Positions 30,190 to 45,982 of a DNA stretch of 64,000 nucleotides are shown piece after piece. The notes below the pieces were generated by a model. That model ran no database searches, was not told the origin of the DNA, and was given only the letters and a program-made list of their open reading frames with translations. Position 1 is the stretch's first letter; every line of letters begins with the position of its first letter. Source of the DNA: Candidatus Omnitrophota bacterium (GTDB lineage Bacteria > Omnitrophota > Gorgyraeia > Duberdicusellales > 4484-171); contig JBAZGN010000005.1 in assembly GCA_041652815.1 (NCBI GenBank), forward strand, positions 8,615 through 72,614. The letters run 5' to 3'. Both the position numbers and the translations under genes were made by a program.

Positions 30190-30387
30190 ATGGTTAAGGT
30201 AAAAGGCGCAAACGCGGATGAGATGGCGGCAGGTTTGCGCTCAATCGTTCTTGAATTAGAAATATTACTTCAGGCGATAGAGAAGAACGACACTGTTGTT
30301 GACGGGTATTTTGAAGAAAATTTAAAGAAAATAGGCTCTACCATTAATATATTAAGGAGACGATTCCAGGAAAGGAGGTTTGTATGA
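30190..30387 (+). CDS. Small helical protein, 65 aa, translationally coupled to the porin gene
   Basis: Strong RBS aaagggaggtgaggtATG. Its stop overlaps the porin start (ATGA). Confidence 0.45.
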   Translation: MVKVKGANADEMAAGLRSIVLELEILLQAIEKNDTVVDGYFEENLKKIGSTINILRRRFQERRFV

Positions 30388-31688
30388 GAAGGTGGGAATT
30401 CTTTGTTTCTTTTATCGCATTAATTTTTATCTCAAAAGTTGTCTTTGCAGGGGAAGTCGACATTCTTGTCCAGAAGCTCGTTGATAAAGGTATATTAACT
30501 CCCGGTGAGGCGCAGCAAATTGTTACTGAGACAAAAGAAGAGGTAAAAAAAGAGATTGCTAAAGGCACTTATTCCTCGCTTCCGTCATGGGTTCAGAACA
30601 CTAAACTAAAAGGAGATTTCAGATTACGGTACCAGCATGACCATGCAAAAGTTTTGGCTAATTCCACAACAAATAAAACCGGCGATCAAAATAGAGCCAG
30701 AATCCGCATGCGCCTGGGCTTTGAAAGTAAAGTTAACGACAAATTACTAGTTGGTGTAGGCATAGCGACCGGTAAATCCGACGGTTCTGCTGACGCGGCT
30801 CGTTCTACTAACTGGACATTGGGCGATGGTGGTTTTGGCAAAAAACCAATAGCTTTAGACTACGCATATGCGCAGTATAACGTTACCCCGTGGGCTACGG
30901 TTATCGGTGGTAAATTTAAAAATCCGCTTTGGGAGCCGGGAGACCTGATCTGGGATACAGATATTAATCCCGAGGGCGGCACTGTTAAATTAAGCATGAC
31001 AAAATTAATCCCAAACACAGAATTATTTATGAACGCTGGAGTTCTGTTGCCAGGAAATTCAAGCAGTTGGTCAGCTGACCCCACGCTTTTTGCTGTCCAA
31101 CCGGGCATCGTCTATAATTTTAACGATAAAGTTCAGCTAAAAGGCGCTTTCTCTTACTATGATTTTACCGGAGTTCGTGGCAAAGTTTTAAGCGGTAATG
31201 CCGGCACCAACAGCGGCGCGACTACAGGTTTAGCATATAGCTACAGGAATATCATTCCAGCAGCGGAACTCACCATAAAAGAACCATTAAAATTTGCGGG
31301 CCTGGATCTCCCATATTTTGCGCTTTTTGGAGAATACGTCCAAAACGTTGCGCTTAGAGCGGATGACACAAATGGTGACGACAATACCGGGTATATGTTA
31401 GGACTAAAGTTTGGCGCGGAGAAAGTGGAAAAATGGGCAGATTGGCAGGTTAGATATAATTATGCCATGCTTGAAAAGGATGCGGTATTAGATACACTTC
31501 CTGATTCTGATCGTTATGGTGGGAAAACAGGAATGCGGTCGCACGAGCTTATGTTTGACTGGGGTTTGGGTAAAAATACCTGGATTGGTATTGACGGTTA
31601 TTATGGATGGCAGCTTAAAGGAAATTTTGGTTCTACCCAGTCTAAACCGGCCTCGGTATTACAAATTGATTGGAATTTAAAATTTTAA
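30384..31688 (+). CDS. Outer-membrane porin (phosphate-selective porin O/P-like) preceding pstS
   Basis: 434 aa. Signal peptide, short coiled coil, beta-barrel-like body, C-terminal ...WNLKF. Positioned as the first gene of the pst operon. Confidence 0.6.
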   Translation: MRRWEFFVSFIALIFISKVVFAGEVDILVQKLVDKGILTPGEAQQIVTETKEEVKKEIAKGTYSSLPSWVQNTKLKGDFRLRYQHDHAKVLANSTTNKTGDQNRARIRMRLGFESKVNDKLLVGVGIATGKSDGSADAARSTNWTLGDGGFGKKPIALDYAYAQYNVTPWATVIGGKFKNPLWEPGDLIWDTDINPEGGTVKLSMTKLIPNTELFMNAGVLLPGNSSSWSADPTLFAVQPGIVYNFNDKVQLKGAFSYYDFTGVRGKVLSGNAGTNSGATTGLAYSYRNIIPAAELTIKEPLKFAGLDLPYFALFGEYVQNVALRADDTNGDDNTGYMLGLKFGAEKVEKWADWQVRYNYAMLEKDAVLDTLPDSDRYGGKTGMRSHELMFDWGLGKNTWIGIDGYYGWQLKGNFGSTQSKPASVLQIDWNLKF

Positions 31689-31707: not shown

Positions 31708-32526
31708 ATGAGGAATTTAAACAGAATTTTTTTCTCGGTACTGCTTATCTTGGGATTGGCAATACCGTGTTTTGCCGGAACTAAAAATATAAAAATTAAC
31801 GGTTCAACTACCGTGCTTCCTATCGCGCAAGCGTGTGCGGAAAAATTTATGGAAAAAAATTCTGATATAAATATTTCTGTGCAAGGCGGCGGCTCAGGCG
31901 TGGGCATCTCTTCCCTTATTGATAAAACTACAGACATCGCCGATTCTTCAAGGGCGATAAAGGATACTGAATTAGATAAAGCAGTGGCTAATGGTGTAGA
32001 GCCAAAAGCACACGTTGTTGCTATGGATGGAATCGCTCTAGTAATTAATCCTTCAAACAATATCAGTGCACTTACCAAGAAACAAATAAGAGATATTTAC
32101 ACAGGGGCCATATCTAACTGGTCGCAGCTTGGCGGTCCTGACGAAAAAATAGTAGTTGTTTCCAGGGACACATCAAGCGGAACATTCGAAGCATTTAATG
32201 AACTTGCTTTAGATAAAGTCAAAGTTAGGACTGATGCACTGATGGAAGCGTCCAATCAGGCTGTAGTTTCCGTTGTCGATAAAACTCCCGGAGCTGTAGG
32301 CTATGTTGGGCTTGGATATATTCAAGCGGGAGTAAAAGCAGTTAGTGTAAATGGGATAATGCCTTCTAAGGAAACGGTCCTTTTAGGTAAATACCCTATT
32401 TCGCGGCCGCTTTTTATGTATACAAATGGTGCGCCTCAAGGAGCGATTAAAAAATTTATCGATTTTGTTTTAAGCCAAGAGGGGCAAAAAATAGCTGACG
32501 AGCAAGGTTATGTAGGAATTAAATAG
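31708..32526 (+). CDS. pstS: Phosphate ABC transporter substrate-binding protein
   Basis: Lipoprotein-like signal (LAIPCFAG), GSTTVLP, SVQGGGSGVGIS, SSRAIKD, YPISRPLFMYTNG. Confidence 0.9.
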   Translation: MRNLNRIFFSVLLILGLAIPCFAGTKNIKINGSTTVLPIAQACAEKFMEKNSDINISVQGGGSGVGISSLIDKTTDIADSSRAIKDTELDKAVANGVEPKAHVVAMDGIALVINPSNNISALTKKQIRDIYTGAISNWSQLGGPDEKIVVVSRDTSSGTFEAFNELALDKVKVRTDALMEASNQAVVSVVDKTPGAVGYVGLGYIQAGVKAVSVNGIMPSKETVLLGKYPISRPLFMYTNGAPQGAIKKFIDFVLSQEGQKIADEQGYVGIK

Positions 32527-32588: not shown

Positions 32589-33482
32589 TTGAATAACATG
32601 AAAGAAAAAATATATAAATGGATATTTACGATGGTTGCTTTTGCCTCTTTGCTTTTTTTAACCGGGATTACCATAATTCTTTTTAAAGAAAGTTTGCCTC
32701 TTTTTCAAAAAGTAAAATTCTTTGATTTTATCTTTGGAAAGGCCTGGTATCCCACATATGAACTTCCTGAATTTGGAATTTTACCGCTCATTTTAGCATC
32801 GGTACTAGTTACGATAGGCGCTCTGTTTGTATGCGTACCTTTAGGTATAGGAAGCGCCTTGTATATACATGAATTAGCAGGACCAAAACAAAAATCCATT
32901 TTGAAGCCAACAATAGAAATATTGGCAAGTATCCCTTCAATAGTTTTCGGATTTTTTGCGATGGCTATAATGGCACCTTTCCTGCAAAAGCTTTTACACA
33001 TCCCTGTTGGCCTTTGCGCGTTTACGGCAAGCTTAGTTTTAGGCATAATGGCCGTTCCAACCGTATGCAGTATAGCTGAAGACGCATTAAGTTATGTCCC
33101 GAAAAGTTTCAAAGAAGCTTCTTTAGCGGTTGGAGCAAACAGATGGCAAACATTGATAAGGGTTGTGATTCCTGCGGCTGGTTCCGGGATATCAACCGCA
33201 ATAATCCTTGGAATGAGTAGAGCTATAGGAGAGACCATGACGGTGCTTATGGCTGCCGGAGGCGCGGCAATCATCCCAAGCAAATTAAGCGATTTATTTG
33301 CGCCTGTCAGGCCAATGACTGCGACAATTGCAGCTGAGATGGGTGAAGCAGCCATGGGAGGTTTGCACTACCATGCATTATTTGCGATAGGTCTTATTCT
33401 TTTTATCGTTACATTTGTATTTAATATTATTGCCGAGCTAATAAGCAGAAAATTCAGGCTTAAGCTTGGGCTTAGTGGATAA
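32589..33482 (+). CDS. pstC: Phosphate ABC transporter permease PstC
   Basis: 6-TM permease with EAA-like loop EASLAVGANRWQTLIRVVIPAAGSGI. Confidence 0.9.
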   Translation: MNNMKEKIYKWIFTMVAFASLLFLTGITIILFKESLPLFQKVKFFDFIFGKAWYPTYELPEFGILPLILASVLVTIGALFVCVPLGIGSALYIHELAGPKQKSILKPTIEILASIPSIVFGFFAMAIMAPFLQKLLHIPVGLCAFTASLVLGIMAVPTVCSIAEDALSYVPKSFKEASLAVGANRWQTLIRVVIPAAGSGISTAIILGMSRAIGETMTVLMAAGGAAIIPSKLSDLFAPVRPMTATIAAEMGEAAMGGLHYHALFAIGLILFIVTFVFNIIAELISRKFRLKLGLSG

Positions 33483-33486
33483 GCCT

Positions 33487-34428
33487 ATGAATGGAAATGG
33501 ACAATTAGCGTCGGTCAAAGCATCTTATTCTATAGAAAAAGCTTTTGACCGGATAACTAAAATACAACTTCCGGAAAAAAAATCAAGCGGTAAGCTCAAG
33601 CAAAAACTTGGTTTTTTCCTTTTAGGATTATCTATGGCAATAGTGCTTCTTTTTTTGGGAAGCATTGTGTATTTTATTGTTACAAAAGGGATAAGGGCAA
33701 TCTCTTGGGAGTTCTTAACGCAGGTGCCGAAATCAGCAATGACCAAAGGCGGGGTTGCGCCGGCCATTGTAGGTACGCTTTATCTAACGCTTGGTTCGAT
33801 AATTTTTGCGCTTCCACTAGGTCTTGCTTGCGCAATATATCTTTGCGAATACAGCCCAAAAAATATTATCGTTAATATAATTCGTATTAGCATCAATAAC
33901 CTTGCCGGAGTGCCTTCTGTGGTGTTTGGTTTATTTGGCTTGGCGGTGTTTGTTAAATTTTTTGGGTTTGGCGTGTCAATACTATCAGGAAGCCTTACGC
34001 TGGGGATATTGGTATTACCTTCGATAATCTCTGCAACGCAAGAATCTCTTTTGGCTCTGCCTCAATCAATAAGAGAAGCTTCTTTGGCACTCGGCGCAAC
34101 CCAATGGCAAACCATAAAAAAAGTTATTTTGCCTTCAGCTTTACCCGGAATTCTTACCGGAATTATTTTAAGTATCGGCCGTGTTGCCGGAGAAACCGCG
34201 CCTATTCTGTTTACGGCAGCAACTTTTTATATGCGCGGCTATCCGAAATCATTGTTTTCAGAGGTGATGGCTTTGCCTTATCACATATATGCGCTTATGA
34301 CTGAAGGAACACACCCCGAAGCGCAAACACAAATTGCTTACGGTTGCGCTTTAATATTACTTGTGCTGGTGCTTTTTATTTCAAGTATCGCAATAATTAT
34401 CAGGCAAAGAACAAAAGATTTAGTTTAG
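33487..34428 (+). CDS. pstA: Phosphate ABC transporter permease PstA
   Basis: [32 protein letters not shown]. The start is ambiguous between the TTG at 33466 (track) and the ATG at 33487. I give the ATG. Confidence 0.8.
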
Positions 34429-34442
34429 ACAAAGAAAATATT

Positions 34443-35207
34443 ATGGAAAACAATAAAACAAGAATTAAGGTAAGAGAGGTAAATTTTTATTATAATAAAA
34501 CCAAGGCATTAAAAAATATCGATTTAGATATTTACGAAAATAAGGTAACAGCGCTAATAGGGCCTTCGGGTTGCGGGAAATCTACGTTTATAAGGTTAAT
34601 CAACCGCATGAACGACCTTATAATACATAGCCGGTTTGAAGGAAATATTTACCTGGATGGAGAAGATGTTTACAGTCCGGCGATAGATGTGGCTGATTTA
34701 AGGCGGCGCGTGGGTATGGTATTTCAAAAACCTAATCCTTTCCCAAAAACAATTTTCCAGAATATAAGTTATGGTATGGAAGTCAACGGCATAAAAAACA
34801 AATTATTTATAAACAACCGGGTTGAAGAATCGCTTAAAAAAGCAGCTTTATGGGAAGAGGTAAAAGATAGATTAAACGATAGCGCTCTTAGGCTTTCCGG
34901 CGGGCAACAGCAGCGTTTGTGTATCGCGCGTGCGCTTTCGGTTGAACCGGAAGTAATTTTATTTGATGAGCCATGCGCAAGCTTAGATCCTGTTTCAACC
35001 AGAAAGATTGAAGAATTACTTCTTGAATTAAAAAAAGAGTATACGATAGTTATCGTTACACATAATATGCAGCAGGCGGCTCGGGTTTCCGATTATACCG
35101 CCTTTTTATATCTTGGAGAATTAATTGAGTTTGGAAGAACCGAAAAAATATTTACCGTTCCGAAAAGTAAAATGACCGAAGAGTACGTTACGGGAAAATT
35201 TGGATAA
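34443..35207 (+). CDS. pstB: Phosphate ABC transporter ATP-binding protein PstB (canonical motifs)
   Basis: Walker [10 protein letters not shown], signature LSGGQQQRL, Walker B ILFDEP, H-loop VTHN. I moved the start to the ATG at 34443 (RBS aaagaaaatattATG). Confidence 0.9.
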
Positions 35208-35226
35208 CAGCTATAAAGGAATACAA

Positions 35227-35652
35227 ATGGAAAAGAAAAAAGTATTATTCATATGCAAGCATAATTCTGCAAGGAGTCAAATGGCTGAAGGGTTGCTTAA
35301 AAATTTCTTTGGCGATTATTATGAAGTTTATAGTGCAGGTGCAGAACCGTCTACAGTTAATCCTTTTGCTATAAAGGCAATGGAAGAAATAGGCATAGAT
35401 ATATCAAGGCAACGCTCAAAAAGTATTAACGAGTTTATCGATTCGCAATTTGATTATGTGATTACGGTATGCGATTCCGCAGAGACTGCCTGCCCATTTT
35501 TCTCTAACAGCAGATACTATGTACATAAAAGTTTTAAGGATCCTTCGCAAATTTCCGGCTCTCACGCAAAAAAGCTGGAAGCTTTTCGTAATACCAGAGA
35601 CGAGATAAAACAATGGATGGAAAAATCATTTTTTAAGGAAATAGGTAAATGA
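35227..35652 (+). CDS. arsC: Thioredoxin-coupled arsenate reductase / LMW-PTP family (ArsC, three-Cys type) embedded in the pst operon
   Basis: CKHNSARSQMAEG P-loop (CX5R), downstream Cys pair TVCDSAETACP, and DP motif, as in B. subtilis ArsC. Lies between pstB and phoU. Confidence 0.75.
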   Translation: MEKKKVLFICKHNSARSQMAEGLLKNFFGDYYEVYSAGAEPSTVNPFAIKAMEEIGIDISRQRSKSINEFIDSQFDYVITVCDSAETACPFFSNSRYYVHKSFKDPSQISGSHAKKLEAFRNTRDEIKQWMEKSFFKEIGK

Positions 35653-35683: not shown

Positions 35684-36352
35684 ATGGAAAGGCATTTTGA
35701 CGAGGAATTAAAAAAATTGAAAGAAAATATTATCACGATGTCTTTGATATCGCAAGATATGATTGAGGATGCAATTATTATGCTCAAGGAAAGAAAAAGT
35801 GAATTAAAAGAAAGCGTATTTGAGAAAGAAAGAAAACTTAATATGATACAGATAGAGATAGACAACATAGCTTTTAAACTTATCGTGCTTAGGCAACCGG
35901 CTGCGGGGGACTTGCGATTTCTTATATCAGCTATTAAGATTAATTCCGACCTGGAAAGGATTGGTGACCTTGCGGTAAATATAGTCGAACGTAACCAGGA
36001 ATTACTTAAAGAGCTGCCGTTAAAACCGCTGATAGGTATACCACGAATGGCAAAGATATCACAAAAGATGGTGCATGACGCTATAGATTCTTTTATTAAT
36101 AGAAAAGCGGAATTAGCGCAACAGGTGTGTTGTCAGGATGATATAGTAGATAACCTGAACGAGCAAATTTTCAGAGAGTTATTGACATATATGTTGCAGG
36201 ATACGAAAAACATAACTCGCGCAATAAGCCTTACATTTATTTCGAAATATCTCGAACGCATTGCCGATCATGCTACTAACATCGGTGAAGATGTATACTA
36301 TATGGTAGAAGGTAAAGATATCCGGCATCATAGCGATGACTATTGTAAATAA
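35684..36352 (+). CDS. phoU: Phosphate signalling regulator PhoU
   Basis: 222 aa. Two PhoU repeats with DLERIGD / ERIADHATNI metal-binding motifs. Confidence 0.9.
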   Translation: MERHFDEELKKLKENIITMSLISQDMIEDAIIMLKERKSELKESVFEKERKLNMIQIEIDNIAFKLIVLRQPAAGDLRFLISAIKINSDLERIGDLAVNIVERNQELLKELPLKPLIGIPRMAKISQKMVHDAIDSFINRKAELAQQVCCQDDIVDNLNEQIFRELLTYMLQDTKNITRAISLTFISKYLERIADHATNIGEDVYYMVEGKDIRHHSDDYCK

Positions 36353-36512: not shown

Positions 36513-37367
36513 ATGTTTAAGAGATGGTTATTTATTTTAGGAATAATTACTTTTGCAAACCCGCTATTCGCCGCGTCAAATAAAAATTCTATCCAAATCA
36601 AAGGTTCAGATACCATGGTCAATTTAGGCCAGGCGTGGGCTGAAAAGTACATGGAGAAAAATACCGCTGAATTTGTAGCAGTCACCGGCGGCGGTTCAGG
36701 CACTGGGCTTTCCAGTTTAATCAGCGCTACCTGCGATATTGCGATGAGTTCAAGAAATATCAAAGATAAAGAAATTTCCTTAGCTAAACAAAAAGGAATA
36801 AATCCTTACGAGATAAAAGTAGCTTTGGATGGTTTAGCCGTAGTGGTTAACCCCAAAAATCCTGTGAGCAAATTGACTATTGACCAGCTTGCTCAGATTT
36901 TTACCGGGAAGATTACTAATTGGAAGGAACTTGGCGGGCAAGATATGAAAATTGTTATTCTTTCGCGTGAGGTCAACTCAGGAACGCACGTTTATTTTAA
37001 AGAGCATGTGTTAAGAAGAGGCGACCCAAACGCGAAAGATGAATTTGCTCCGACTGCACTATTACTTTCTTCTTCTCAGGCAATCGCAGACGAGGTAGCG
37101 GGTAACTCTGCAGCAATAGGATATTACGGGATGGGATATATTTCGGCTAAACAAAAGCCCATTATGGTAGCTAAAGATGAGAAGGCTGCGTATGAAACAC
37201 CATCCATAGAAAATGTGGTTAATGGTAAGTATCCAATATCTCGGCCGCTATTCCTTTATACGAACGGAGAGCCAAAGGAGTTGGTAAAGAAATTTGTAGA
37301 TTTTTGTCTTTCCAAGGAAGGGCAAGATATTGTTCTAAAAACTGATTTTGTTCCCGTAAGCAAATAA
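36513..37367 (+). CDS. pstS: Phosphate ABC substrate-binding protein, second system
   Basis: GSDTMVNLGQAWAEKY, TGGGSGTGLSS, SSRNIKD, YPISRPLFLYTNG. Confidence 0.9.
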   Translation: MFKRWLFILGIITFANPLFAASNKNSIQIKGSDTMVNLGQAWAEKYMEKNTAEFVAVTGGGSGTGLSSLISATCDIAMSSRNIKDKEISLAKQKGINPYEIKVALDGLAVVVNPKNPVSKLTIDQLAQIFTGKITNWKELGGQDMKIVILSREVNSGTHVYFKEHVLRRGDPNAKDEFAPTALLLSSSQAIADEVAGNSAAIGYYGMGYISAKQKPIMVAKDEKAAYETPSIENVVNGKYPISRPLFLYTNGEPKELVKKFVDFCLSKEGQDIVLKTDFVPVSK

Positions 37368-37373
37368 ATTTCC

Positions 37374-38237
37374 ATGCGTAAAATTAAAGAGTTCATCATT
37401 GAGAAGCTAATCTTGATTTCAGGATTAGCTTCTATCTTTTTCGTTATTCTTATCTTTTTATTTCTCCTCAAGGAAGGATTCGCAGTATTTAAAATAGAAA
37501 GCCCGCTTAATTTTCTTTTCGGCAGAAGCTGGTATCCGATTTCAGAACCGCCTCAACTAGGGATATTGCCGTTGATTCTTGGTTCTTTGCTGGTTACCCT
37601 GGGGGCTGCGATAATTTCCATACCCATCGGAATAGGATGCGCGGTTTACATTGCCGAAATAGCCCCGGTTAAAATCAAAGAAATACTTAAGGCAGGTGTA
37701 GAGTTATTAGCGGCTATACCCAGTGTTGTTTTGGGTTTTGTAGGTATGGTAACGTTGGTGCCTTTGGTAAAGACAATTTTTCATTTGCCCACAGGCCTTA
37801 CCGCGCTGTCCGGTTCGATAATGCTGGCATTTATGGCTATGCCGACAATCGTTTCGATTGCCGAAGATGCTCTTTATTCAGTTCCAAAAAATTATAAAGA
37901 AGGTGCTCTCGCGCTAGGAGCAACCCATTGGCAAACCATTTGGCGAGTGATGCTTCCGGCAGCGTCCAGCGGGATACTTGCCGCGGTAATGTTGGGGATT
38001 GGCAGAGTAATAGGCGAGACAATGGCGGTTATGATGATTACTGGAAATGCCGCGGTGATTCCGCAGAGCATTTTGGTTCCGGTAAGAACCTTGACTGCAA
38101 CTATCGCGGCAGAAATGGGCGAGGCTGTAGTAGGGAGCGAGCATTATTTTGCTTTGTTCGCTATTGGCATAGTTTTATTTGTTATAAGCTTCGCAATTAA
38201 CGTAACCGCAGATTTATTTTTGCATAAGAAAGAATGA
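37374..38237 (+). CDS. pstC: PstC permease, second system
   Basis: EGALALGATHWQTIWRVMLPAASSGIL. Confidence 0.9.
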   Translation: MRKIKEFIIEKLILISGLASIFFVILIFLFLLKEGFAVFKIESPLNFLFGRSWYPISEPPQLGILPLILGSLLVTLGAAIISIPIGIGCAVYIAEIAPVKIKEILKAGVELLAAIPSVVLGFVGMVTLVPLVKTIFHLPTGLTALSGSIMLAFMAMPTIVSIAEDALYSVPKNYKEGALALGATHWQTIWRVMLPAASSGILAAVMLGIGRVIGETMAVMMITGNAAVIPQSILVPVRTLTATIAAEMGEAVVGSEHYFALFAIGIVLFVISFAINVTADLFLHKKE

Positions 38238-39082
38238 AAAATCCATATCGGACACAAAAAATCGCATTTTTCTTTTTACTCCTAGCAACTCTTTTAATTG
38301 TTATTCCTGTCGGTCTTATCGTCGTAATTATTATCCAGAAGGGTTTACCTGCGATAAATTGGCAGTTTCTTTCGGATATACCACGACAGGGGATGCGCGC
38401 AGGAGGAATATTCCCCGCCATTATAGGCACTATATATTTGGTTTTCGGTGCAATTATTTTTGCTCTGCCCATAGGGCTTCTGGCAGCGATATATTTAAGC
38501 GAATATTCCAAAGATAATTTACTTACCCGGATTATAAAATTAGCAATCATAAACTTGGCAGGCGTGCCGTCTGTCGTTTACGGCCTTTTTGGTTTAGCGC
38601 TCTTTGTAATATTTTTCAAATTTGGAGCGTCTATACTTTCTGGTTCACTTACGCTGGGGATAATGATTCTTCCTTTAATTATCACTGCTTCGCGTGAAGC
38701 TTTGGAAAGTGTTCCGCAAACCTTTCGCGAGGTAAGTTTATCTCTGGGAGCAAGCAAATGGCAGACTATCAGGCATATAGTTTTGCCTAATGCCATACCA
38801 GGCATATTAACCGGGACAATTTTAGGGTTAGGCAGAGCCGCCGGCGAAACAGCGCCAATTCTTTTTACTGTGGCAGCTTTTTATCTACCGCGGCTGCCAA
38901 AGTCTATTTTTGACCAGGCTATGGCTTTACCTTACCATCTTTATGTTATTTCAACGCAGGTACCTAATGTTGATGAGAAGATAAGATACGGAACGGCCTT
39001 TGTGCTCTTGGCATTGGTTTTGTTTATGAATTTGGTGGCAATAATAATACGTTATAAATTCAGAAGGAAGAAGAAATGGTGA
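38234..39082 (+). CDS. pstA: PstA permease, second system
   Basis: EVSLSLGASKWQTIRHIVLPNAIPGILTG. Overlaps its neighbours by 4 and 7 nt. Confidence 0.9.
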   Translation: MKNPYRTQKIAFFFLLLATLLIVIPVGLIVVIIIQKGLPAINWQFLSDIPRQGMRAGGIFPAIIGTIYLVFGAIIFALPIGLLAAIYLSEYSKDNLLTRIIKLAIINLAGVPSVVYGLFGLALFVIFFKFGASILSGSLTLGIMILPLIITASREALESVPQTFREVSLSLGASKWQTIRHIVLPNAIPGILTGTILGLGRAAGETAPILFTVAAFYLPRLPKSIFDQAMALPYHLYVISTQVPNVDEKIRYGTAFVLLALVLFMNLVAIIIRYKFRRKKKW

Positions 39083-39822
39083 AATTTAAGGTTCATGATT
39101 TAAATATATGGTTCGGCTCCATACATGCGATAAAGCAGGTAAGCATGGAGATAGAAGCTAATGAGATTTTAAGCATCATTGGCCCTTCTAATAGCGGTAA
39201 AACAACTTTCTTGCGTACGTTAAACCGCTTGAACGATCTAAGCCTAAGTTTTAAACTTACTGGCGCGGTGGAATTAGAAAGAGAAAATATCAAAGCGATA
39301 GATGTTGAGGTGTTACGCCGTAAAATAGGAATGGTTTTTGCGCTACCTCTACCGCTCCCGTTATCTATATTTGATAATGTGGCTTATGGGATAAAGATGC
39401 ATGGAGAAAGAAAAAAGAAAAAGCTTGCGGAAAAAGTAGAAGAAGCATTACGGCAAGCCTATCTTTGGGAAGAGGTAAAAGACAGGCTTAGTGAGTCAGC
39501 CTTTAAATTATCCGGAGGCCAACAGCAGCGTCTTTGTATAGCAAGAACATTAGCTGTTTGCCCAGAAGTAATTTTATTTGATGAACCTTGTTCCGGATTA
39601 GACCCTATTTCTACCGCAAAAGTAGAGGATGCTATGGTTAAGTTAAAAGAGAAATACACAATAGTTTTAGTGACTAATAACGTAAAACAAGCGGCAAGGG
39701 TTGGGGATAAAACCGCATTCTTTTTAAGTGGAGAGCTTATCGAGATAGATAAAACCGATAAGATTTTTACAGCGCCAGGAGATAAACGTACAGATGGTTA
39801 TATTAGGGGAAAATTTGGATAA
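39076..39822 (+). CDS. pstB: PstB-like ATPase, subunit 1 of a probable heterodimer (H-loop His replaced)
   Basis: Walker [10 protein letters not shown], signature LSGGQQQRL intact, Walker B ILFDEP, but the H-loop reads VLVTNN instead of VTHN. Confidence 0.85.
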
Positions 39823-39824
39823 AG

Positions 39825-40577
39825 ATGAAAATAATAACTAAAAATCTAAATCTTTGGTACGGCAGTTTTCATGCCTTAAAAAATATAAATTCCTGTTTTG
39901 AAATAAACAGGATTACCGCGATAATCGGGCCATCTGGTTGTGGTAAGTCAACAATGCTACGGGTTTTTAACCGGATGAATGATTTGATTGAAGGTGTGCG
40001 CACAGAAGGTGAGGTTATAATTGATGAAGCAAATATTCTTGATGAAAATGCTGACTTAGTTACTTTACGTAAAAAAGTGGGGATGGTATTTCAGAGGCCT
40101 AATCCGTTTCCGTTATCTGTTTATGAAAATATTATTTTTGGAGAAAAAATCCATGGAGAAAGAGTAAAGCGAGATAGATTGGATGAAATAGTTGAAGAAA
40201 GCTTAAAAAGTGTTCTGTTGTGGGATGAGCTGAAAGATAAACTCAATGAACCAGCTTTAAGATTATCATTAGAACAAAGGCAAAGGTTATGCATTGCAAG
40301 GCTAATTGCCGTTAAACCCGATGTGTTATTGATGGATGAACCGTGTTCTGCTTTAGACCCCCAGGCAACCCAGAGGATTGAGGAATTAATGCGTGAACTA
40401 AAAAACAATTATACTATAATAATAGTGACGCATAACATGCAGCAGGCAGCGCGCGTTTCGGACGATACCGGATTTATGCTTTTAGGTGAATTGATAGAAT
40501 TTGGTAAAACCGAAAACATATTTACTGCGCCCCGCGATAAACGCACGGAAGATTACATCACCGGTAGATACGGATAA
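39825..40577 (+). CDS. pstB: PstB-like ATPase, subunit 2 (degenerate ABC signature)
   Basis: Walker [10 protein letters not shown], Walker B LLMDEP, H-loop VTHN intact, but the signature reads LSLEQRQRL instead of LSGGQ. Confidence 0.85.
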
Positions 40578-40595: not shown

Positions 40596-41273
40596 ATGGA
40601 GAGACATGTTGATCAAGAATTAAAAGGGTTGAATAAAGAAATTCTGAAGATGAGTGCCTTAGTAGAAGAAGCCATCTGTAAATCTATTGAGGCGCTAAAG
40701 AACAGAGACAGGGGAATGGCCATAAGCGTCATAGATAATGACTCCAATATTGATAAGTTAGAATTATCCATAGATGAAAAGTGCATTGATTTGATAGCGC
40801 GCTATCAACCTATGGCTAAAGATCTCCGCTTTATTACCACCGGCATGAAAATAAATGCTGAATTAGAGCGGATAGCGGATATTGCTGTAGATATAGCCCA
40901 ACGCACGCTTGAAATAGTAGATAAGCCGCTCTTAAAGCCGCTAATTGATATACCTAAGCTAACAGTGGTTGCGCAAAACATGGTAAAGCTGTCTATAGAC
41001 GCATTTGTTAAAGGTGATATCGCGCTCGCCAAAAAAGTTTTACTGTCTGATTCCGAAGCTGACGAGCTTCGGAATATAATACAAAAAGAGCTTATCGAAG
41101 ATTACATGGTAAAAGATGGAACGACTGCTCCAAGGGCAGTGCAGCTGTTGTTGATAGCCCGTTTTCTGGAACGTATATGCGACCACACTACTAATATTGC
41201 CGAAGATGTGATTTATATGGTTCAGGCAGAAGTTGTAAGGCATCATCCTGAGAAATTAAAAAATGGAAAATAA
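40596..41273 (+). CDS. phoU: PhoU, second copy
   Basis: 225 aa. ELERIADIAVDI / ERICDHTTNI. Confidence 0.9.
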   Translation: MERHVDQELKGLNKEILKMSALVEEAICKSIEALKNRDRGMAISVIDNDSNIDKLELSIDEKCIDLIARYQPMAKDLRFITTGMKINAELERIADIAVDIAQRTLEIVDKPLLKPLIDIPKLTVVAQNMVKLSIDAFVKGDIALAKKVLLSDSEADELRNIIQKELIEDYMVKDGTTAPRAVQLLLIARFLERICDHTTNIAEDVIYMVQAEVVRHHPEKLKNGK

Positions 41274-41369: not shown

Positions 41370-41771
41370 ATGAGAACAATAAAAAGATTTGGCGTATCAT
41401 TAGAGGAAGAGCTGTTTAATGAATTGGATGCTATTGTCAAAAAGCATAAATTTCCTAACAGAAGCCAGGCCATCCGTTTTCTCATACGTAAGAATACAGC
41501 CGAAGAAGCATACGAAGAAAATAAAGAAGTTTCAGGAGCGGTTGTTATAATTTATGACCATCATAGAAGGGAGCTTGTTAATAAGTCATTAGATATCCAG
41601 CATGAGTTTACCAATATAATCTTAGCCAGCCAGCATGTTCATTTAAGCCATCACAGCTGTTTAGAGATAATCGCTCTTAAGGGGAAAGCTTCAAACCTTA
41701 AAGCGTTAGCAGATAAACTGATAGCCTTAAAAGGAGTAAAACACGGTAAGCTCGTAGTTACTTCAGCGTAA
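41370..41771 (+). CDS. nikR: Nickel-responsive regulator NikR
   Basis: Ribbon-helix-helix N-terminus (KRFGVSLEEELFNELDAIV...NRSQAIRFLI). C-terminal ACT-like domain with His/Cys cluster HVHLSHHSC. The promoter region contains a CCTTAG-N10-CTAAGG palindrome. Confidence 0.8.
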   Translation: MRTIKRFGVSLEEELFNELDAIVKKHKFPNRSQAIRFLIRKNTAEEAYEENKEVSGAVVIIYDHHRRELVNKSLDIQHEFTNIILASQHVHLSHHSCLEIIALKGKASNLKALADKLIALKGVKHGKLVVTSA

Positions 41772-42065: not shown

Positions 42066-43412
42066 ATGCGGATAATTGCATTTTTAATTGGCATTTGTTT
42101 TTTTACAAATGCTTGTTTTGCTGAAGAAGTTTCCATAAAAGATGAGATTACTCAACTTAGGGCTCGCCTTGAAGTTTTGGAGCAGAAATTAGCTATCCAG
42201 GAAAAAAGTATGGGTGAACAAAAGCAGTGCATTCTAGACCAAAATAAGAAAATTTCCGATTACGAATCAAAACTAAGCCAATTTGATACGAAGTTACATC
42301 GCGAGGCAGGCAAACCCATTCCGCTCGTAGAAGGCCTTGATATCAGCGCCGGCGCTACAATGATTGTGCAGGGCACCAATAACGTAAACAGCGCTTCAGA
42401 TGCCGCGGCGCTAAAAGACAGCCGTGCTGATGGTTCCTATTCTACCGACATCACTATAGCTAAAGAATTTGAAGAAATCAGCGGCCGGGCCTTTCTGCAC
42501 CTTGAAAACGGCCAGGGCGAAGGACTTGAAGATAACCTTACCTTGTACAGTAATGTCAACCGTGACGCTGACGATGATGTCAATGTCAGGGTTACCGAAG
42601 CCTGGTATGAACAAGGTTTTTTCAATAATAAAGCAGCTATAACCTTTGGAAAGTTAGATCCTACGGTTTATTTCGACAACAATGAAGTTGCCAATGATGA
42701 AACTACCCAGTTTTTAGGCAGAATGTTTCGTAACGCTGCGACAATTGATTTTCCGGATAATACTGCCGGTATCCGCCTTGCCTACATGCCGAAAGAATGG
42801 ATTGAATTCAACTATGGCGTATTTGATGGAAACAATGATTGGGAAAAAATTACCGATAACCTGGTTAATATGGGCCAGGTAACTTTTAAAACTAACTTCT
42901 TCAATCTTCCCGGTAACTACCGTTTCTACGGCTGGAACAATAATACCTATTACACTAAATGGCTCGATGAAACTAAAAACAAAGAAAATGCCTATGGTTT
43001 TGGCTTAAGTTTTGACCAGAAGGCAAACGATATCGTAACTCTTTTTACCCGTTACGGTTGGCAGAATCCGGAAGTTTATAATCCTAATATCACGGCAACC
43101 GGAGATTTAAGTTATTCCCTTGAACAATCCTGGAGCGCAGGTTTTCAGGTGGAAGGTAAACCCTGGGGTAGAGAGAACGATGTAGCTGCTTTTGCGATTG
43201 GCCAGATTTTCCCTTCCGATAATTACAAAGAAGCCACCGGACGTCTGGGTAAATCCGAAGGCCATCTTGAAGCTTATTACAAAATATTTGTTAACAAGCA
43301 CCTTTCCTTAAGCCCTGATTTCCAATATATCTGGAATCCTTTTGGAAAAGATATACCAGATGATACAAACGGAGTGTTTGTAGGCGGAATGAGGACACAG
43401 GTGGATTTTTAA
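42066..43412 (+). CDS. Outer-membrane porin with long N-terminal coiled coil (OprB/carbohydrate-porin-like barrel)
   Basis: 448 aa. Signal peptide, ~60-aa coiled coil (ITQLRARLEVLEQKLAIQEK...), beta-rich body ending ...GGMRTQVDF. A CTGGACAACC-N18-GGTTGTCCAG inverted repeat abuts the start codon. Confidence 0.55.
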   Translation: MRIIAFLIGICFFTNACFAEEVSIKDEITQLRARLEVLEQKLAIQEKSMGEQKQCILDQNKKISDYESKLSQFDTKLHREAGKPIPLVEGLDISAGATMIVQGTNNVNSASDAAALKDSRADGSYSTDITIAKEFEEISGRAFLHLENGQGEGLEDNLTLYSNVNRDADDDVNVRVTEAWYEQGFFNNKAAITFGKLDPTVYFDNNEVANDETTQFLGRMFRNAATIDFPDNTAGIRLAYMPKEWIEFNYGVFDGNNDWEKITDNLVNMGQVTFKTNFFNLPGNYRFYGWNNNTYYTKWLDETKNKENAYGFGLSFDQKANDIVTLFTRYGWQNPEVYNPNITATGDLSYSLEQSWSAGFQVEGKPWGRENDVAAFAIGQIFPSDNYKEATGRLGKSEGHLEAYYKIFVNKHLSLSPDFQYIWNPFGKDIPDDTNGVFVGGMRTQVDF

Positions 43413-44650: not shown

Positions 44651-45982
44651 ATGAAGAAAATTATCACTTTCTCGATAGTATTTCTTCTAATAGCTAATTG
44701 TGCATTCGCGCAAGAGGCGATAATTTCTCCTTCCAAGCCTGCGACATTATTTCAACAATTAAAATCATGGTGGAGCGGTGAGTATTTTTTCGGTAATTGG
44801 GGCGGTAAACGGAAAGAATTAAGTGAGCGCGGAGTAGATTTTACCAGCACTTACGTTACCGACCTTTTAACGAATGTCCACGGCGGCATAAGAAAGAACC
44901 GTTTCCGTTATGACTCATCTTTAGGTTTGGATATTAACGTTGACCTTGAAAAAGTTTTCGCTTTAAACGGATTACAATTCCATATTTCTGGCGTCTATCG
45001 TGAAGGAAAAAACCTTTCCGGAGACATAGGTAATCGTTTCCCGCCTTCGAGTATCTACGGCTCAGAGTATGTACAGCTTTATAACCTTTATCTGGAACAA
45101 GAGATGTTTCAGGATAAGGTAAGCCTTAAAGTAGGGCGTCTTGGTACAGGAGACGACTTTGCGCAATCGCCGCTCTACGGGACATTTCTTACCAATTCCA
45201 TAGATGGCTGCCCCATCAGTTTGCCGATAAACTTTTTTTTCACGGTTTATCCAACCGCCACCTGGGGTGCCCGTTTGAAATTGAAACCGGCGAATGCTTT
45301 TGTGTGGCAGGGCGGGATTTATCACCAGGATTCAGGTGTTAGCCGCGAAGCTGCGCACGGAGCAGATTTAACATGGAGAAGCAATAAGGGAATTCTTTTC
45401 ATTCAGGAATTTAGTTTCTTGCCCAATCAATATGCTGAAGCAGAAGGCCTTCCGGGAAATTATAAATTAGGAGTTTTTTATTCCACGGGGCGTTTCAAGG
45501 ATTTATATGCGGACGAAAACGGAGGCTCTTATGCTTCAACGGGTTTGCTTCAGAAGAGGCGTTATGGAAATTACGGCCTTTACCTTCATGCCGATCAGAT
45601 GCTCTATCGCGAGCCGGATTCTAAAGACCAGGGGTTTACGCCATTTTTTGTAGTGGTATTGCAGCCAAGCGATATGAATGAACTACCGCTTTTCATAGAT
45701 TTAGGGCTTACTTATAAAGGATTAATTCCCGGCCGCGATAATGATGTTGCCGGAATAGGCCTTGCTTATGGCAAGTGGAGCAGGCAATTAAACAAACACC
45801 ATAGTGATGCCGGAGAAGAAAAACAGACATTTGAAACCGTAATTGAGGCTACTTATAAAATCGCCATAAACCAATGGCTATATTTCCAACCGGATATTCA
45901 ATATATCATTAATCCCAACGGCGGTAATCAGGATACTGGTAACGCTTTAGTTACCGGAGCAAGAATCGGCATTACCTTTTAG
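44651..45982 (+). CDS. Carbohydrate-selective porin (OprB family)
   Basis: 443 aa. Signal peptide. GNWGGKR..L...GV.F motif near the N-terminus. Barrel body ending ...GARIGITF. Confidence 0.65.
   Translation: MKKIITFSIVFLLIANCAFAQEAIISPSKPATLFQQLKSWWSGEYFFGNWGGKRKELSERGVDFTSTYVTDLLTNVHGGIRKNRFRYDSSLGLDINVDLEKVFALNGLQFHISGVYREGKNLSGDIGNRFPPSSIYGSEYVQLYNLYLEQEMFQDKVSLKVGRLGTGDDFAQSPLYGTFLTNSIDGCPISLPINFFFTVYPTATWGARLKLKPANAFVWQGGIYHQDSGVSREAAHGADLTWRSNKGILFIQEFSFLPNQYAEAEGLPGNYKLGVFYSTGRFKDLYADENGGSYASTGLLQKRRYGNYGLYLHADQMLYREPDSKDQGFTPFFVVVLQPSDMNELPLFIDLGLTYKGLIPGRDNDVAGIGLAYGKWSRQLNKHHSDAGEEKQTFETVIEATYKIAINQWLYFQPDIQYIINPNGGNQDTGNALVTGARIGITF

Follow-up and report, generated by a model that had tools for sequence, protein, structure and literature searches.

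How does a phosphate importer work if both of its PstB ATPases deviate from the consensus, each in different motifs? This question is raised by the second of two Pst systems encoded in the window (the whole stretch of 64,000 nucleotides of Candidatus Omnitrophota DNA that was analysed). In E. coli PstSCAB (PDB 9k3x, 9k3y, 9k3s) the two PstB subunits are identical, one NBD being placed on PstA and one on PstC (PMC12976172). System 2, too, is a high-affinity phosphate importer of the PstSCAB type; it is encoded on the forward strand by genes for the periplasmic phosphate-binding protein PstS (36513..37367; Pfam PBP_like_2, E = 1.3e-48), the permeases PstC (37374..38237) and PstA (38234..39082; both Pfam BPD_transp_1), two PstB proteins, and PhoU (40596..41273; Pfam PhoU, E = 5.7e-43). 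The two pstB genes lie at 39076-40577, exactly where the original prediction had placed them: PstB-1 (248 aa, here B1) at 39076..39822, its start overlapping pstA by 7 nt, and PstB-2 (250 aa, B2) at 39825..40577. They are adjacent, separated by 2 nt in the window and mostly overlapping in orthologues (-1 or -4 nt), and are translationally coupled. Both are thus part of a pstS-pstC-pstA-pstB(-phoU) operon and form, as adjacent paralogues within it, a tandem of the kind known from Firmicutes (E. faecalis, PMC12096839; B. subtilis PstBA/PstBB, PMC11466899), where two neighboring pstB genes also reside in a pst-phoU operon. System 1 encodes a PstB (B0; 34443..35207, forward strand) in which all motifs are consensus; presumed to be a homodimer, it served as the internal comparator.

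TIGR00972, the NCBIfam equivalog for PstB, has a curated cutoff of 343.2 bits; B0 (399.9 bits) and B2 (377.4 bits) score above it, and B1 (341.3 bits) falls 1.9 bits under it. B1 and B2 are each 52-55% identical to B0, and about half of the residues are common to the two. B1 has the fold of a PstB NBD: the best PDB matches of an AF2 model, which covers B1 only (pLDDT 95.3), are E. coli PstB (TM 0.92-0.95), with a TM of 0.95 and 47% identity to 9k3x_C.

Alignment with canonical PstB confirmed that the motifs of both subunits differ from it. B1, aligned to B0, reads GPSNSGKTT / GMVFA(LPLPLP) / LSGGQ / ILFDEP / SGLD / VTNN; as had been predicted, the signature LSGGQ (39508..39522) is intact and VTNN replaces the H-loop His, but the list of changes was incomplete, five further substitutions having been missed. 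Walker A (39181..39207) retains Lys and Thr but carries Gly to Asn and Cys to Ser exchanges; the Q-loop Gln is replaced by Ala (A89; 39340..39342); the D-loop (39592..39603) is SGLD, with Gly for Ala, instead of the canonical SALD; and the H-loop region NNVK (39676..39687, within VTNNVK) contains, besides His to Asn (N201), a Gln to Lys exchange at H+3 (K204). The Walker B Asp-Glu (39580..39585) is kept. B2 (GPSGCGKST / GMVFQ / LSLEQ / LLMDEP / SALD / VTHN) is canonical apart from its signature, LSLEQ (40263..40277), where Leu-Glu replaces Gly-Gly; as foreseen, the Walker motifs and the H-loop are preserved, with Walker A at 39927..39953 and the H-loop His203 at 40431..40433, both established by motif alignment and in related loci. 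Neither subunit therefore carries the full catalytic motif set, Q-loop Gln and H-loop His being absent from B1 and the two signature glycines from B2.

In a metagenome-assembled genome, sequencing or assembly errors are conceivable a priori, though only so, as the cause of such deviations, and B1 might likewise be a decaying duplicate. Sequencing or assembly error, or substitutions not conserved in orthologues, had been named as what would overturn the prediction; neither applies. Among the related loci (the best 80 in a scan of GTDB genomes, mostly labelled Omnitrophota; motif counts are based on alignment) the substitutions are kept in 80/80 B1 and in all 76 complete B2 copies, with VTNNVK and the Q-loop Ala in 80/80 of the former and L[ST]LEQ in 76/76 of the latter. 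The elements that B1 retains are just as stable (LSGGQ in 79 of the 80, FDEP and hence the Walker B D-E-P in every one). The motif substitutions are fixed in 120/120 close homologues, and identical ones recur in hundreds of independent assemblies. The order PstS-C-A-B1-B2(-PhoU) is kept in all of the best 80 loci wherever the contig allows, PstS being the first gene of the conserved block and PhoU following B2 in most; PstC is 83-97% identical across these loci. The dN/dS ratio is 0.06-0.07 for B1 and ~0.05 for B2, estimated from the closest loci only, as dS is saturated in most pairs, where NG86 yields no valid value. B1 and B2 are under purifying selection, and the predicted fold of B1 is intact, with high model confidence. 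Sequencing error or a pseudogene is rejected by this conservation and the dN/dS values, and the probability left for an explanation by error or decay is negligible.

The positions at which the two types depart from canonical PstB were compared with a set of 50 cluster representatives, chosen because they carry His, Gln and SGGQ at the motif positions, so that the corresponding values of 100% in this set reflect the choice. In B1-type proteins the Q-loop position is Ala in 99% (Gln in 100% of the set, which was picked for it), the H-loop position Asn in 100% (His in 100% of the set, likewise picked for it) and H+3 Lys in 99% (canonical Gln, 74%); the Walker A Ser is conserved in 98%, where 96% of the canonical proteins have Cys, and the D-loop Gly in 95%, where 82% have Ala. 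B2-type signatures have Leu in 99% and Glu in 97% at the two positions that are Gly in 100% of the set picked for SGGQ.

The arrangement is found well beyond the close relatives. In distant B1-type proteins (50-60% identity, GC 55-70%), from genomes labelled Planctomycetota, Verrucomicrobia, Spirochaetota and Deltaproteobacteria (labels taken from MAG names only), TNN is conserved in 206 of 207 (117/118 and 89/89), LSGGQ in 118/118 and 88/89, and the Walker B D-E-P in 118/118 and 89/89; in all lineages B1 retains the Lys of Walker A, the Asp-Glu of Walker B and the aromatic residue of the A-loop. In 9/9 complete distant loci (GC 0.55-0.70) a TNN-type B1 is followed by a partner with Glu or Asp at the second signature Gly, the signatures of such distant partners being LPLEQ, LPLDQ, LSLEE, LSGEQ, LAPEQ and LSAEQ; in the reverse direction, starting from a B2-type protein, a TNN-type C-terminus was found upstream. 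A search of protein cluster representatives did yield distant TNN-type and signature-variant representatives but no close one for B1 (best, 58% identity), because clustering at 50% merges B1 with canonical PstB. The distance matrices of B1 and B2 are correlated (r = 0.88, Mantel p ~0.001), and the arrangement is conserved and co-inherited across phyla. In an NJ tree the B1-type proteins form one clade (bootstrap 96) on a long stem; the B2-type clade has a bootstrap of 31, and a sister grouping of B1 and B2 is recovered in 1/100 replicates. A recent local duplication as the source of the pair was rejected, the two being non-sisters in this tree and the B1 stem being long. The complementary B1/B2 design turns out to mark an old, strictly conserved PstB subfamily in many uncultured bacteria, which so far is undescribed as far as the literature searched goes: searches for degenerate or heterodimeric PstB, or for PstB1/PstB2, found no description of a complementary pair. 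The original statement that such an arrangement is not typical of PstB holds for characterised PstBs; it does not for a large subfamily of uncultured, mainly PVC-group or Omnitrophota-labelled lineages, in which the arrangement is the rule.

The B1-specific substitutions all lie on the nucleotide-binding side (Walker A, Q-loop, H-loop), the B2-defining ones in the signature. In a head-to-tail NBD dimer, Walker A, Q-loop, Walker B and H-loop of B2 would face the LSGGQ of B1, and the opposite site would combine the B1 Walker side with the B2 signature. In the 76 complete Omnitrophota-type pairs and in 9/9 distant pairs the non-consensus residues come together in one composite site and the other is consensus. 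Since all changes map to one composite ATP site, the heterodimer would have one consensus site, as the motif logic of the original prediction had it, and because of the motif pattern in B1 and B2 either homodimer would have none. The two NBD subunits of system 2, being different, would then have to pair with each other. Judged from these motif patterns, the best explanation, which we hold to be likely, is that B1 and B2 form an obligate heterodimer with one competent ATP site and a non-catalytic site opposite. The site made of B2 and the B1 LSGGQ would be the only catalytically competent one and would drive the conformational cycle of PstC/PstA. Its counterpart, with neither H-loop His nor Q-loop Gln and an altered P-loop on the B1 side, and LSLEQ on the B2 side, would be incompetent for hydrolysis or very slow. 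B1 probably still binds nucleotide, since Lys and Thr of Walker A, the aromatic residue of the A-loop and Asp-Glu of Walker B are kept. With an acidic residue in place of the second signature Gly, B2 should resist tight closure on the γ-phosphate, and for this reason the degenerate site is most likely a non-catalytic, structural or regulatory contact. Heterodimerisation, a turnover of one ATP per cycle and this role of the degenerate site are what we infer.

[quoted passage not shown] By this precedent, where PstB1 is accessory, a homodimer of B2 could be the motor of system 2 and B1 an accessory or regulatory paralogue outside the catalytic dimer, perhaps one that serves PhoU/PhoR signalling as a docking subunit; that B2 passes the TIGR00972 cutoff while B1 stays just below it, and that the PhoU gene comes after the pair, would fit. 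A B2 homodimer, however, would have two LSLEQ sites, each with an acidic residue in place of the Gly that contacts the γ-phosphate, a change that in CFTR abolishes ATP-driven closure; the invariant LSGGQ of B1 would be needed only for completing a working site with a partner, and the two proteins co-evolve. An accessory B1 is accordingly rated very improbable.

ABC heterodimers with one degenerate site are well known, among them TAP1/2, TM287/288, TmrAB and CFTR (reviewed in PMC7756269 and PMC3971661). Like these, system 2 has two non-identical NBDs, of which one would contribute its Walker side and the other its signature to the non-consensus site while the second site is consensus. These are exporters and channels with fused TMD-NBD; system 2, by contrast, is a type I importer that depends on a binding protein and has free NBDs. 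With respect to E. coli PstSCAB, operon type and PstB fold are alike, but there the PstBs are identical and both sites consensus, whereas system 2 has distinct PstBs and one predicted consensus site. Our verdict is that system 2 probably represents an asymmetric ABC heterodimer within a type I importer. The likeness to asymmetric heterodimers that had been drawn stands as far as the convergence of the defects on one site goes; it fails at two points, the Walker B Glu and the nature of the signature change. Loss of that Glu from the degenerate site is called a hallmark (PMC7544095), and B1, which keeps D-E-P, does not share this trait. As to the signature, the first Gly is the one changed in TAP2 and MRP1, whereas in B2 it is the second that is replaced by Glu or Asp. 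Chemically the same substitution, G551D or G551E in CFTR, blocks ATP-driven NBD dimerisation by charge repulsion (PMC4178940); there it concerns a consensus site and is a pathogenic loss of function, while the B2 change is conserved, selected and placed in the degenerate site.

As the catalytic Glu is kept in essentially all B1 proteins, residual or alternative catalysis at the degenerate site is possible. Taken further, Asn in place of His, Lys at H+3 and the signature Glu might constitute an alternative catalytic constellation, with both sites active and two ATP used per cycle; the nucleotide-binding residues that B1 retains in all lineages and the invariance of the replacements (Asn 100%, Lys 99%, Glu 97%), which suggests function rather than mere loss, speak for it. 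At a site that has lost Q-loop Gln, H-loop His and the two signature glycines, however, most contacts to the γ-phosphate, Mg and the attacking water are gone (PMC7756269), and in CFTR an acidic replacement of the second signature Gly is inhibitory; we regard two active sites as very improbable. Somewhat speculative, and rather unlikely in our estimate, is the idea that the degenerate site goes beyond a dead ATPase site and is a re-engineered, largely nucleotide-independent latch, with the consensus site alone doing the opening and closing. The invariant Glu/Asp of B2 would occupy or repel the γ-phosphate position, paired with the B1-specific Asn201 and Lys204, and the site would be kept in a fixed geometry, empty or with ADP. 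If so, a natural one-ATP-per-cycle phosphate importer would exist beside a canonical two-site paralogue, which may be favoured in energy-limited organisms or may provide a dedicated docking surface for PhoU signalling.

To our knowledge, work on degenerate ATP sites has been confined almost entirely to ABC exporters and CFTR. There is continuing debate about the number of ATP that an ABC importer needs for each substrate; degenerate sites occur commonly among exporters, and in HisP a single active site suffices (PMC3971661). The B1/B2 pair would add to a well-understood type I importer a variant with a single consensus site that is widespread and naturally selected. For this importer a high-resolution homodimeric reference now exists (E. 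coli PstSCAB, 2026), and a canonical PstB paralogue only 4 kb away in the same genome is a built-in control. For the family it would mean that the annotation "PstB" by TIGR00972 lumps two functionally non-equivalent subunits, and that a change of the second signature Gly to an acidic residue, pathogenic in CFTR, is a conserved design feature of the B2 type.

Two complete phosphate-specific transport operons lie on the + strand between 30.4 and 41.3 kb of the window. System 1 encodes a Porin_5-family outer-membrane porin (30384-31688; Porin_5 E = 7e-49) directly upstream of pstS, followed by PstS (31708-32526), PstC (32589-33482), PstA (33466-34428), a single PstB, here B0 (34443-35207), an LMW-phosphatase/ArsC-like protein (about 35227-35652; Pfam LMWPc E = 3e-18) and PhoU (35684-36352). 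The porin, which system 2 lacks, may be phosphate-selective and co-transcribed with the canonical system. The B0 reading frame (34344-35207) extends upstream to a TTG at 34344, within pstA; the ATG at 34443, which matches the N-termini of other PstBs in the alignment, is likely the true start. The frame between pstB and phoU spans 35200-35652 with a likely start at 35227, and LMWPc homologues (42-49% identity) adjoin pstB or phoU in the Omnitrophota loci L006, L010, L011, L025, L028 and L032; this gene may encode an arsenate reductase tied to arsenate leakage through Pst. System 2 comprises PstS (36513-37367), PstC (37374-38237), PstA (38234-39082), two PstB-like proteins, B1 (39076-39822) and B2 (39825-40577), and PhoU (40596-41273); pstA and B1 overlap by 7 nt, and the B1 stop and the B2 start are 2 nt apart. 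In NCBI an identical protein carries the label Candidatus Omnitrophica. Directly downstream are genes for a NikR-type regulator (41370-41771; NikR_C, E = 6e-30), then an OprB-family porin (42066-43412; E = 5e-29) and a large ORF of 443 aa (44651-45982).

When the three PstBs were aligned with each other, all motifs of B0 were canonical. As originally noted, B1 retains LSGGQ and has Asn for the H-loop His (VTNN). It also keeps Lys/Thr of Walker A and Asp-Glu of Walker B; beyond what was noted, its Q-loop Gln is Ala, Walker A is altered, the D-loop reads SGLD and Lys replaces Gln three residues after the H-loop position. B2, equally as noted, has the signature LSLEQ, every other motif, including Walker A/B and the H-loop, being canonical. 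The NCBIfam TIGR00972 scores are 399.9 bits for B0, 377.4 for B2 and 341.3 for B1, with a cutoff of 343.2; by the curated threshold B1 is thus a borderline PstB.

The substitutions are fixed in relatives. Among the database homologues closest to B1 (82-100% identity), 120/120 have both the Q-loop Ala and TNN. Scanning GTDB species genomes yielded 318 relatives, and the best 80 loci, mostly labelled Omnitrophota, were analysed; the gene order PstS-PstC-PstA-B1-B2(-PhoU) holds in all of these where the contig suffices, with junctions in orthologues mostly overlapping by 1 or 4 nt. By alignment, VTNNVK, the Q-loop Ala, SGLD and the Walker B FDEP are each found in 80/80 B1 copies and LSGGQ in 79/80, while 76/76 complete B2 copies combine L[ST]LEQ with a canonical Walker A and the H-loop His. 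Estimated from the closest pairs only, those with unsaturated dS, dN/dS is 0.066-0.068 for B1, about 0.05 for B2 and 0.02-0.04 for PstC and PstA. An AlphaFold2 model of B1 (66 homologues, pLDDT 95.3) superimposes on E. coli PstB (9k3x_C) with a TM of 0.95 and an rmsd of 1.1 Å. Motif conservation, dN/dS and predicted fold together argue that B1 is an intact NBD under purifying selection; a sequencing or assembly error at the B1/B2 motifs is ruled out by the fixed substitutions and dN/dS.

A search of 50%-identity cluster representatives recovered divergent TNN-type proteins and signature-variant PstBs, and two profile searches seeded with these gave 118 and 89 further proteins with 50-60% identity to B1. 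TNN is present in 117/118 and 89/89 of them, LSGGQ in 118/118 and 88/89, DEP in all, and Ala or Ser for the Q-loop Gln, as well as SGLD, in nearly all; their MAG labels include Verrucomicrobiae, Planctomycetota, Candidatus Desantisbacteria, Rectinemataceae and Deltaproteobacteria. In 9/9 distant loci that are complete (GC 0.55-0.70), the gene directly after the TNN-type one encodes a PstB whose Walker A, Q-loop, Walker B and H-loop are canonical and whose signature is degenerate (LPLEQ, LPLDQ twice, LSLEE, LSLEQ twice, LSGEQ, LAPEQ, LSAEQ). Starting in reverse from a B2-type protein (LSAEQ), the partial gene upstream has a B1-type C-terminal end. One Verrucomicrobiae-labelled locus (L084_g3) also has a separate canonical pst operon, as in the window. 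Judged by these sequences, the arrangement is ancient, widespread and previously unnoticed; its uncultured carriers are labelled mainly PVC-group and Omnitrophota.

Some B1-type proteins, namely P0362 (L083:5001-5846, labelled Rectinemataceae) and about 12/118 distant proteins, have Ala for the Gly before the P-loop Lys (GPSGSAKTT or GPAGSAKTT), which suggests that in some lineages nucleotide binding at the degenerate site has eroded further. A B1-type operon labelled Candidatus Desantisbacteria carries a small DUF433/PIN-like (DUF5615) gene pair, probably a toxin-antitoxin module, between pstS and pstC (L089:2280-2878). Other PstB lineages, outside the B2 clade, have the signatures LSVGQ, LSLGQ, LSIGQ, LSAGQ, LTRGQ or LSPGQ; an LSVGQ protein (P0235, L093:477-1322), directly after PstA and the sole PstB there, would form a homodimer with two non-consensus signatures, unlike the B1/B2 pair.

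Residues were called B1-specific if 85% or more of B1 and fewer than 10% of the canonical sequences have them, the latter being 50 cluster representatives chosen for their His, Gln and SGGQ. These are Thr to Leu before the P-loop, Cys to Ser in Walker A, Gln to Ala and Phe to Leu in the Q-loop segment, Ala to Gly in the D-loop, His to Asn, and Gln to Lys at H+3. Specific to B2 are Leu-Glu for the signature Gly-Gly and six further positions (L97, L136, L160, Q180, R190, Y249). At the motif level, the defects of B1 thus lie on its Walker side and those of B2 in its signature. ABC dimers are universally head-to-tail, the Walker side of one NBD and the signature of the other forming one composite site, and in such a dimer both sets of defects are predicted to meet in one site. 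Residue positions and the conserved gene pair support the idea of one consensus and one degenerate site.

A neighbor-joining tree of 142 PstB sequences places all 42 B1-type proteins in a single clade (bootstrap 96); a B2-type clade of 20 is weakly supported (bootstrap 31), and the two types do not group as sisters (bootstrap 1). Across 76 pairs, the pairwise distances among B1 correlate with those among B2 (r = 0.88, Mantel p about 0.001), consistent with inheritance as a unit.

A B1 homodimer would lack Gln and His in both sites and a B2 homodimer would have LSLEQ in both; only B1:B2 would yield a consensus site, from the Walker motifs of B2 and the LSGGQ of B1, and the best explanation for the invariance of LSGGQ in a B1 that is otherwise degenerate is that it completes this site. 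From this motif logic we infer an obligate heterodimer, which would hydrolyse ATP at a single site. That a type I importer can work with one active site is stated for HisP in a passage of PMC3971661 citing Nikaido & Ames. Loss of the Walker B Glu is named a hallmark of degenerate sites in a passage of PMC7544095; in contrast, the B1 degenerate site keeps this Glu. About 97% of B2-type proteins have an acidic residue at the second signature Gly, the position of CFTR G551D and G551E, which block ATP-driven NBD dimerisation via γ-phosphate repulsion, an effect not seen with G551K and G551S (PMC4178940). Given the retained B1 residues and the acidic B2 signature, the site may bind nucleotide, via B1's intact Lys/Thr, Asp-Glu and aromatic A-loop residue, and probably does not close normally on ATP; hypothetically, the conserved B1 residues Lys204 and Asn201 could pair with the Glu of B2.

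In E. coli PstSCAB the two PstB subunits are identical, one sitting on PstA and the other on PstC (PMC12976172), whereas those of system 2 are distinct; the arrangement is atypical in that comparison, as had been proposed, but it is conserved across a wide set of uncultured lineages. [quoted passage not shown] According to reviews, pairs of a consensus and a degenerate site occur mainly in exporters (PMC3971661, PMC7756269), and among B. subtilis importers degenerate status was noted only for the fused RbsA and NupO (PMC11466899); no degenerate PstB pair was described in the literature searched. The observation is real, and its interpretation as an asymmetric ABC dimer is supported by the sequences. 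The principle, an asymmetric dimer with one consensus site, is known; the setting in a Pst importer is previously undescribed, and the motif solution of the B1/B2 pair is distinctive.
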